From IMG/VR virus record IMGVR_UViG_2778261591_000014: a stretch of 4,397 nt of DNA, one strand, 5' to 3'. Both the position numbers and the translations under genes were made by a program. Of the stretch, positions 335 through 1,676 are shown piece by piece; within the stretch, counting starts at the first letter, position 1, and the number at the start of each line of letters is the position of its first letter. The stretch is from a virus. Its lineage: Duplodnaviria; Heunggongvirae; Uroviricota; Caudoviricetes. The notes under the pieces are model-generated. The model saw nothing but the letters and a program-made list of their open reading frames with translations, was not told where the DNA came from and did not search any database.

Positions 335-739
335 TCACTTATTACTGTTCGTTTCCATGGGATTGGCCAAGAAATCAAAATAAGGCAGAGTGAACCTACC
401 AAGGTTTGACATGAGGATAATTTGCTCGGCATATGTTTTTATATAGGGATATGCCATATTGGGAGCAATGGACCTTACCTCATATGATTTTGCCATTTCA
501 TGAGAAAAATCATCTTCTGACCGGAAGTCAAAGTCGTATGTGATGTCCATCTCAAGCCTGCCTTCAATAGTTACGGAGGCAAAATATCTCACTCTAAATA
601 GCTTTGAATCCTTCACATTAGTGTAAAGTTCATTATTTAGATTAACGGTTGTTTTTATGGCTTTTTTTGCTGTTGAATCGCCTTCTAGCCGTGTCATAAC
701 CAAGCGTTCAACTTTTTTGCTAATGAGTTCAATTTTCAT
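335..739 (-). CDS. SecB-like dedicated chaperone (candidate third component of a TAC module), 134 aa
   Basis: ORF start overlaps the upstream antitoxin stop by 4 nt (736-739). The C-terminal half (APNMAYPYIKTYAEQIILMSNLGRFTLPYFDF) resembles the conserved E. coli SecB segment ([36 protein letters not shown]), with the P-N and P-Y positions aligned. Assignment rests on recalled sequence, not a profile search. Confidence 0.5.
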   Translation of the reverse strand: MKIELISKKVERLVMTRLEGDSTAKKAIKTTVNLNNELYTNVKDSKLFRVRYFASVTIEGRLEMDITYDFDFRSEDDFSHEMAKSYEVRSIAPNMAYPYIKTYAEQIILMSNLGRFTLPYFDFLANPMETNSNK

Positions 740-1392
740 GGTAATAATAAGTAATTTCCGTCAGAAGTCATTTCGTCATTCAGGTTGCTAGCCGCTGTGA
801 AACTTGATGACAAGTTACTTATCAAAGAAAAAACATTCCGTTTTTCTTTGCATTTGCCATTACCCCTTACTGCGCTGAACAACATTTTTGAAAAGTAAGA
901 TTCTGTAGCCTTTTCAGCGAAATAAGCAGAAGGTGATGTGACGGCTGACTCACACCGAGCAATGACGCTAGTCATGGCTGTTTCTTCTTCCTCTGCGTCA
1001 ACTAGGCTCCATTCAATTGCGCTCATATCTTGAATTAAGATATCTGCAGGAATTCCAAGTCCGTCATGTAGTCTACGGATCATTGAAAGACTTAATGGAC
1101 GCTTACGATTTAAGACCTCAGATACTTTAGATGCTGAGCCAATGTATTGTTTCATATCGGCATAAGAGAGGCCTTGTTGATCCATACGGAACTTGATTGC
1201 TTCTATGGGATCTGGCTTGTCCATAGGGAACTCGCGTGACTCATAGTGCTCGATAAGCAAGCCTAGTAGTTCAAACTCATCAAAATCTTCAGTTCCAGGT
1301 TGTAAATCACTAGACGCAAGTTCAATGAGCCTTTCCATAGCTGCAGCATGCTCTTCACTATTTTTAATGATGCGCCAGCTAGTTCGATTCAT
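736..1392 (-). CDS. higA: HigA-family HTH antitoxin with an unusual ~95-aa C-terminal extension, 218 aa
   Basis: Residues ~60-123 (EAIKFRMDQQGLSYADMKQYIGSASKVSEVLNRKRPLSLSMIRRLHDGLGIPADILIQD) align closely with the HTH region of E. coli HigA (AVIRTLMDQYGLTLSDLPEIGSKSMVSRVLSGKRKLTLEHAKKLATRFGISPALFID). E. coli HigA ends there; this ORF continues ~95 aa. Start overlaps the higB stop (ATGA at 1389-1392). Confidence 0.75.
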   Translation of the reverse strand: MNRTSWRIIKNSEEHAAAMERLIELASSDLQPGTEDFDEFELLGLLIEHYESREFPMDKPDPIEAIKFRMDQQGLSYADMKQYIGSASKVSEVLNRKRPLSLSMIRRLHDGLGIPADILIQDMSAIEWSLVDAEEEETAMTSVIARCESAVTSPSAYFAEKATESYFSKMLFSAVRGNGKCKEKRNVFSLISNLSSSFTAASNLNDEMTSDGNYLLLP

Positions 1393-1676
1393 TTAAGCCT
1401 CCACTTGTCGTACTCTGCATGAGTTCCAACTCTTTCAACTATGACCATTCCTGCCTGGTAAACAACTTGGACAACGAGCCGATAGTTATTGCCTTTTATA
1501 TTAAAAATTACCCTGTTGTTAGGAAGGAAGTCGGCAGAATTAAATCTATTCCGTATGTCTTGAGTCGTTTTCCAGTTTTCTCTTATCACTTCATCATACC
1601 AAGAGTCTAAAGCCCCCTTGGCCTGATTGTGCTTCCGGCTAAAACTGTGAAGCTTCTCTACGTTTAAGACCTTCAT
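1389..1676 (-). CDS. higB: HigB-family (RelE/ParE superfamily) toxin, 95 aa
   Basis: C-terminal FNIKGNNYRLVVQVVYQAGMVIVERVGTHAEYD matches the E. coli HigB core FNVGGNELRVVAMVFFESQKCYIREVMTHKEYD. Toxin-first gene order with a 4-nt overlap onto the antitoxin is typical of higBA. Shine-Dalgarno GAGGG lies 14 nt upstream of the ATG, a longer than usual spacing. Confidence 0.8.
   Translation of the reverse strand: MKVLNVEKLHSFSRKHNQAKGALDSWYDEVIRENWKTTQDIRNRFNSADFLPNNRVIFNIKGNNYRLVVQVVYQAGMVIVERVGTHAEYDKWRLK

Follow-up and report, generated by a model that had tools for sequence, protein, structure and literature searches.

Which system occupies the slot directly downstream of the cI repressor gene, the place of rexA and rexB in lambda, in the lambdoid virus record IMGVR_UViG_2778261591_000014? 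The stretch of DNA analyzed here (the window, 4,397 nt in all) carries at this point three consecutive minus-strand genes, which a preliminary description of the sequence had interpreted as a toxin-antitoxin-chaperone (TAC) module. We hold with high confidence that they are an allele of HigBAC, a characterized and self-contained anti-phage system, lying in the cI-downstream (rex-equivalent) hotspot of Shiga toxin (Stx)-converting lambdoid phages with H-19B-type immunity. The preliminary description was correct in its idea but had left open whether a TAC had been characterized in this context; the idea is not new, as HigBAC has been known downstream of cI since 2024.

The HigBAC system of Escherichia coli NT1F31 (HigB, WP_112844290.1; HigA, WP_112844289.1; HigC, WP_112844288.1) was characterized experimentally by Mets et al. 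2024 (bioRxiv 10.1101/2024.02.24.581848), a work referred to in other literature by the journal title 'Mechanism of phage sensing and restriction by toxin-antitoxin-chaperone systems'. Statements about it here follow the preprint and its Dataset S1. It is explicitly placed by its authors on a lambdoid prophage downstream of cI, in the position of lambda's RexAB. Since WP_112844288-290 were not among the cluster members listed, the identity of the window cassette was established from the synthetic NT1F31 DNA and the oligonucleotides in Dataset S1. Over the 288 nt of the higB fragment, NT1F31 and the window disagree at a single nucleotide, which gives R31 in NT1F31 and I31 here (window position 1585). 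The TAC fragment of NT1F31, over its first 399 nt, aligns to window positions 1428-1826 and shows 8 mismatches, of which 6 are located upstream of the conserved control region. Exact matches across higA and higC were obtained for about 27 cloning or mutagenesis oligonucleotides, or arms of these, and every HigC oligonucleotide is exact. Three oligonucleotides are off by one base each: one of these substitutions is silent, another falls in the terminator stem, and the third (oKE89) implies Q185 in the HigA of NT1F31, where the window (around position 840) encodes R185, three residues before F188 and in an aggregation-prone patch. The 'native terminator' primer of the same study matches the window terminator with one mismatch, and nucleotide identity is approximately 98-99.7% over the parts compared.

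The correspondence extends to the residues that have been mapped functionally. HigA of NT1F31 is 218 aa long, and its C-terminal chaperone-addiction (ChAD) extension spans residues 122-218, with W128, F158, F188 and Y214 as key aromatic residues; the pockets of HigC involve Y39, N41, R49 and D71. All eight of these residues (four in HigA, four in HigC) are present in the window proteins. Thus, the two loci share the same three genes, their lengths, order and overlaps, the terminator, the 5' control region and the position after cI. They differ in the two amino acids given above, in a few silent or intergenic changes, and in that the cassette is carried here by Stx1- and Stx2-converting phages of H-19B-type immunity.

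The arrangement of the genes is as the preliminary description had reported. The open reading frames (ORFs) of the toxin, antitoxin and SecB-like chaperone genes follow one another in that order, the higB/higA and higA/higC junctions (1389-1392 and 736-739) are both minus-strand ATGA overlaps, and a single terminator is common to all three. The terminator hairpin (326-307, minus strand) begins 8 nt past the higC stop codon and is followed by TTTTCTTT; of the 7 bp in its stem, 6 are G-C pairs, and its predicted stability is -13.7 kcal/mol (z -2.6), a value equaled by 1 of 200 shuffled sequences. The rex position is evident in phage BP-4795, where the cassette is 100% identical and the gene order is N - ORF20/21/22 - cI - cro - cII - O - P - ren.

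The first gene product is a full-length HigB, as had been proposed. It matches the Pfam family HigB_toxin (PF09907) at 4.5e-30 over residues 20-92 of 95 and profile positions 2-74 of 74, with a score of 104.2 bits against a cut-off of 27, and it also matches the PADLOC profile PD-Lambda-2_A (2.5e-42) and the HigB structure 5ycl_B in the PDB (1e-4). An inactivating effect of I31 was considered and ruled out, since family members vary at position 31 (I, R, T, V, K, S), most of them having isoleucine there.

The second gene product is a HigA-like antitoxin with a ChAD extension. Residues 53-119 match the solved E. coli HigA structures 5ycl_A and 5ifg_B (5e-5 to 7e-5), and residues 5-127 match the N-terminal HigA domain of PADLOC PD-Lambda-2_B (profile positions 3-125 of 402) at 3.8e-50. 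Homology stops at about residue 120-127, and beyond about residue 121 no family match was found in the profile searches, which bears out the long C-terminal tail (97 residues) noticed earlier. The N-terminal part is strongly conserved among homologues and residues 122-218 poorly so, and in the tail W128, F158, F188 and Y214 stand where Mets et al. mapped them. The first two are invariant, while position 214 is aromatic in all six divergent homologues compared and position 188 in five of them.

The third gene product, of 134 aa, is predicted to have a SecB fold, and it is SecB-like by fold only, being filed here as SecB-TA and not as SecB. An AlphaFold2 (AF2) model built from 20 homologues (pLDDT 86.9, pTM 0.80) consists of four antiparallel beta-strands followed by a long helix. 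In a Foldseek search of the PDB, its top match was 5mtw, the Mycobacterium tuberculosis chaperone Rv1957 with the ChAD peptide of HigA1 (template-modeling (TM) score 0.73-0.75), followed by SecB of E. coli and Haemophilus influenzae (1qyn, 1fx3 and 1ozb; TM score up to 0.77); the range over these four entries was E 5e-7 to 2e-5 and TM score 0.65-0.77. The protein also matches, over its full length, the PADLOC profile PD-T4-9_C of the CmdC chaperone at 3.2e-11. A SecB-like character, which the preliminary description had read from motifs, is thereby upheld at the level of the modeled structure. Its homologues, which group into 28 clusters, make up a small enterobacterial family in which the pocket residues Y39, N41, R49 and D71 are invariant or nearly so. 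Weak sequence matches of HigC to 3Beta_HSD, RPABC3 and thioredoxin were dismissed as chance.

Five other genera or backbones have kept the same three-gene order. Prophages of Citrobacter and Serratia show the same architecture, 4-nt overlaps and terminator, and the same order is found in Pantoea and in an unclassified Enterobacteriaceae genome; this recurrence points to a conserved operon rather than a chance arrangement. In Citrobacter, the module follows an S24 repressor gene of a Rac-like prophage, and in Pantoea and the unclassified genome it follows cI of lambdoid prophages. In Serratia (L008-L010, 4055-5405), the cassette lies in a P22-like prophage, not beside a repressor gene but flanked by a DUF927 gene and genes for ejection proteins (gp7, gp20 and gp16 types), and its HigC is 63% identical to that of the window; this placement indicates that the cassette moves between different prophage hotspots. 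In the alignment with the Citrobacter and Serratia cassettes, conservation runs from about 70 nt upstream of the higB ATG to the terminator, and the flanks are unrelated; the terminator stem is kept in both and the sequence downstream of it diverges. A 32-aa YoaK-family ORF lies between the repressor gene and higB in Citrobacter and Pantoea prophages (L005 3797-3895, L007 3797-3895 and L011 2788-2886); it does not occur in the window, where the gap between cI and higB is 136 nt.

Among 5426 complete E. coli genomes, the 1342-bp module is present at 95% identity or more in 87, always on the chromosome, with one further genome at 90-95%; they include O26:H11 11368 and O157:H7 86-24. At 99% or more, it occurs in 83 complete genomes, on at least 1000 contigs, and in 30 phage records, comprising 22 Stx1a-converting phages together with Stx2-converting phages, BP-4795 and ST2-8624. 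The chromosomes of O26:H11 11368 and O157:H7 86-24, as well as BP-4795 and ST2-8624, carry the cassette at 100% identity, and in one phage record the region bears the label 'immunity region; similar to bacteriophage H19-B'. The word 'Stx' does not occur in the available text of Mets et al., and a literature search for a connection of Stx phages to HigB or SecB brought up no specific work. In BP-4795, ORF20-22 between N and cI are all three annotated as 'hypothetical protein', several Stx1a phage records are without annotation, and RefSeq labels the products of genes 1-3 as a HigB family toxin, a helix-turn-helix (HTH) protein and a hypothetical protein, respectively. For higBAC, public annotation is behind the literature.

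Upstream of higB, the palindrome TTCCC-N5-GGGAA occurs twice, on either side of a TATAAT element. These two are its only matches in the window, and none of 200 shuffled sequences reached two. Across the cassettes of E. coli, Citrobacter and Serratia, the half-sites are invariant but the 5-nt spacers are not, and TATAAT is invariant in all five aligned cassettes. A scan for consensus promoters called none upstream of higB, the -35 element matching at only 3 of 6 positions, so that the promoter reading (TTCCCT-16-TATAAT) follows from conservation and not from the scan. Palindromes around a promoter are typical of type II toxin-antitoxin (TA) genes that are autorepressed by a dimeric HTH antitoxin, and on account of this layout the two palindromes are probably HigA operators, with TATAAT as the -10 element of a promoter probably belonging to the cassette itself. 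The words 'operator' and 'autoregulat' are absent from the available text of Mets et al., and the region constitutes a small, minor addition to the published system. Between cI and higB (1677-1812), no terminator-like site was found on the minus strand in the scan, and read-through of the cassette from the cI transcript in the lysogen would therefore be possible.

The function of the NT1F31 system has been described by Mets et al. in the preprint cited above. HigB specifically blocks protein synthesis, and HigBA is toxic without HigC but is rescued by HigC supplied in trans. Removal of HigA residues 122-218 makes the antitoxin chaperone-independent, so that the tail is dispensable; triple or quadruple alanine substitutions of the ChAD aromatic residues alter the addiction, and HigC R49A fails to rescue. 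A peptide of HigA residues 121-148 binds HigC at about 1.3 uM in a W128-dependent manner. The system defends against lambda-vir and Bas25, and escape phages carry the substitution S54P in the tail protein gpV, co-expression of which triggers toxicity provided that W67 is present; peptides of gpV bind to HigC in competition with the ChAD. The toxicity, rescue and tail-deletion tests that the preliminary description had suggested were accordingly already published for the NT1F31 allele, as was a role in defense against phages.

By analogy, HigB in the window would be a translation-blocking RNase toxin neutralized by HigA, and the 97-residue ChAD tail would make HigA unstable unless it is held by a tetrameric, SecB-like HigC. 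W128, F158, F188 and Y214 of HigA are predicted to dock in the pockets of HigC formed by Y39, N41, R49 and D71. When a siphovirus of the lambda type infects the cell, its nascent gpV, the major tail protein, would compete with the ChAD and divert HigC, after which HigA would be lost, HigB freed and translation stopped, restricting phage production. We infer that the cassette may be autoregulated through its own promoter (TTCCCT-16-TATAAT) between the two HigA operator palindromes, and that read-through from cI could add to its expression in the lysogen.

Several points weigh against a simple transfer of the published system to this locus. The comparison with NT1F31 was made with the higB fragment, the first 399 nt of the TAC fragment and the oligonucleotides, which cover only parts of higA and higC, and the proteins differ at two or more positions (HigB 31 and HigA 185). 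The functional data all come from the NT1F31 allele, the mechanism being carried over to the window by inference, and defense was seen from plasmids with a Ptet promoter and not from a prophage. The assignment of HigC to the SecB-like chaperones has the predicted fold and the PADLOC profile as its basis, and no SecB match was obtained in Pfam or NCBIfam at E values up to 1. Lastly, the promoter, the operators and expression in the lysogen are deduced from sequence only. In the profile searches proposed in the preliminary description, HigB was recovered, and HigA was recovered in the PDB with its Pfam HTH_3 match (residues 67-118, 3.6e-4, 20.9 bits) just under the cut-off of 23, but SecB appeared neither in Pfam and NCBIfam nor, using the single sequence or a 20-sequence profile, among PDB sequences.

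The last of these results would suit an ordinary higBA pair followed by an unrelated small gene, in which the long HigA tail is irrelevant and the 134-aa protein, labeled hypothetical in RefSeq, is no chaperone. We regard this as having practically no chance of being right, because the modeled protein has a SecB fold (TM score 0.73-0.77 to Rv1957 and SecB) and matches the CmdC profile, the start/stop overlap and the co-occurrence with a long-tailed HigA are kept at every homologous locus examined, and chaperone dependence was demonstrated for the near-identical NT1F31 system, which effectively refutes it. Absence of a SecB-like fold, which the preliminary description had named as a reason to abandon the TAC assignment, was not what the model gave. 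The cassette might also be chiefly an addiction or stabilization module acting by post-segregational killing, with defense as a side effect of over-expression. HigBA was first found as a plasmid-stabilization locus (background in the preprint of Mets et al.), the defense assays used multicopy Ptet plasmids, and the cassette travels with prophages. We nevertheless think this very improbable, as the specific trigger gpV, escape through the single residue S54P and the competition of gpV and ChAD peptides for HigC argue for a dedicated sensor, and exclusion systems are the usual occupants of the hotspot downstream of cI; addiction and defense are, moreover, not mutually exclusive.

A further alternative concerns the allele itself. 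Through its substitutions, the Stx-phage form could have a trigger specificity other than that of NT1F31, or be attenuated, in which case the mechanism would transfer in outline only. The amino acid differences would allow this, particularly R185/Q185 in HigA next to F188, as would the partial coverage of HigA and HigC in the comparison. Yet residue 31 of HigB is naturally variable with isoleucine in the majority, the mapped ChAD aromatic residues and HigC pocket residues are intact, and all HigC oligonucleotides match exactly; the abundance of the allele at 99% identity or more, given above, argues for a maintained function. A changed or weakened allele consequently seems very improbable to us, and a HigBAC working as in NT1F31 is preferred. 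As to the TAC class in general, three of its four defining features are found in the window (operon order, ChAD extension and, by prediction, the SecB fold), and the fourth, chaperone-dependent neutralization that is lost without the ChAD, was demonstrated by Mets et al. with the NT1F31 allele and would apply here by analogy.

If HigBAC responds to gpV, the tail proteins of the phages that carry it are of interest. Lambda gpV (J02459) has W36, S54, DDED61-64 and W67, as in Mets et al. Four carriers were searched with this protein by tblastn, which covered Stx1_JNE122398 completely, BP-4795 almost completely, and Stx2a_WGPS9 and ST2-8624 in their late regions; no match had an E value below 5. 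Two carriers belong to Traversvirus and have a short-tail gene set without an annotated tail tube, and the 'major tail subunit' of BP-4795 (ORF64, L004 20188-21030) has a weak, 25-residue similarity to gpV that lies outside the trigger loop. Self-triggering of the carriers by their own tail protein was rejected, there being no gpV homologue in the sequence examined. The known trigger thus appears to be absent from the carriers, which is consistent with a system aimed at competing siphoviruses of the lambda type. As a tentative proposal, in which we place rather low confidence, the cassette may decide which prophages can coexist in lysogens of enterohemorrhagic E. coli (EHEC): autoregulated via its two operators, it would exclude lambda-like siphoviruses with a gpV-type tail protein, possibly including other Stx phages, and its carriers would escape because they are short-tailed (Traversvirus) or have an unrelated tail-tube protein (BP-4795 type).

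The importance of HigBAC, a case made by Mets et al. 2024, lies in a chaperone that serves as an innate immune sensor of a phage structural protein. The modest addition from the window is that clinically important EHEC lineages have the same cassette in their Stx1- and Stx2-converting phages, along with a conserved promoter-operator region that is directly testable. The correction of annotations and the question of a role of HigBAC in superinfection and polylysogeny of Stx phages would be useful but incremental.

Profile searches and ORF calls over the whole window identify it as a lambdoid immunity region, and its features are collected in Table 1.

Table 1. Features of the window, numbered from its first nucleotide.
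Feature	Position	Strand	Description
Terminator of the higBAC operon	299-326	-	Intrinsic; hairpin and T-run
higC	335-739	-	Putative SecB-like (SecB-TA) chaperone and phage sensor, 134 aa
higA, entire	736-1392	-	HigA-type HTH antitoxin, 218 aa
higA, C-terminal ChAD tail	736-1029	-	Residues 122-218 (97 residues) and stop codon
higA, N-terminal part	1030-1392	-	Residues 1-121; toxin-neutralizing region and Xre-type HTH DNA-binding domain
higB	1389-1676	-	RelE/HigB-family ribosome-dependent mRNA interferase toxin, 95 aa
Proximal palindrome TTCCC-N5-GGGAA	1689-1703		Candidate HigA operator; adjoins the -10 element on its downstream side
TATAAT, -10-like	1703-1708	-	Between the palindromes; candidate cassette promoter
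Distal palindrome TTCCC-N5-GGGAA	1716-1730		Candidate HigA operator; overlaps the weak -35 (TTCCCT)
cI repressor	1813-2517	-	Peptidase_S24 (3.7e-16); annotated cI in BP-4795
cro	2631-2864	+	Divergent from cI
cII	3003-3299	+	Phage_CII (1e-31)
O	3332-4270	+	Phage_rep_O (4e-35)
P	start ~4268		Follows O

Other elements of the immunity region were also noted. Repeated and inverted ATTTATC/GATAAAT motifs occur in the cI-cro intergenic region (2536-2601) and again beyond the TAC terminator (186-273), and these two sets would fit the oR and oL operators of this immunity type. Between cro and cII, a TCGCT-GACAA-AGCGA hairpin (2903-2919; -6.6 kcal/mol, with 4 of 200 shuffled sequences as stable) is a possible nutR boxB for N antitermination. 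A candidate nutL boxB hairpin at 25-60 on the minus strand could not be separated from shuffled sequences (z -1.4) and was set aside. The O gene holds four copies of a repeat of about 20 nt (CATCCCTCAAAACGAGGGA-like) at 3679-3756, which are replication-origin iterons of the lambda type; the sole Rfam match in the window, a sub-threshold snoRNA, falls on these iterons and is spurious.

Among known systems other than HigBAC of NT1F31, the M. tuberculosis TAC Rv1955-Rv1957 (HigB1-HigA1-SecB-TA; 5MTW) likewise combines HigB, a HigA with a ChAD, and a SecB-like chaperone. Its chaperone is only 16-17% identical to HigC, however, the ChAD of HigBAC is more than twice as long, and destabilization in HigBAC is ClpXP-independent according to the available data on NT1F31. 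The mycobacterial TAC is a chromosomal stress-response module, whereas HigBAC is prophage-borne and has a phage trigger, demonstrated in NT1F31. CmdTAC/PD-T4-9 (Vassallo et al. 2022, PMC9519451; 2024, PMC11618068) is, like HigBAC, an anti-phage TAC with a homologous SecB-like chaperone, and in a CmdTA-HigC hybrid one chaperone can replace the other as sensor, but the CmdTAC toxin is an mRNA ADP-ribosyltransferase, its antitoxin is unrelated, and it targets T-even phages. PD-lambda-2 (Vassallo et al. 2022) has three genes, is active against lambda-vir, and shares the HigB-like first gene and the N-terminal domain of HigA. Its B protein differs in having a C-terminal peptidase domain (profile length 402) and no ChAD, and its third gene is P4-antitoxin-like, not a SecB-like chaperone; none of the window proteins matched PD-Lambda-2_C, and the third gene matches PD-T4-9_C instead.

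RexAB of lambda is a pair consisting of a sensor and a membrane ion channel. It occupies the same slot, downstream of cI and upstream of pL/N, and both systems are prophage-encoded exclusion or abortive systems. No Rex family was found among the Pfam, PHROG and PADLOC matches of the three proteins, so that the equivalence is one of position only; the two share no kinship in sequence or mechanism, HigBAC being a TA-chaperone system that stops translation.

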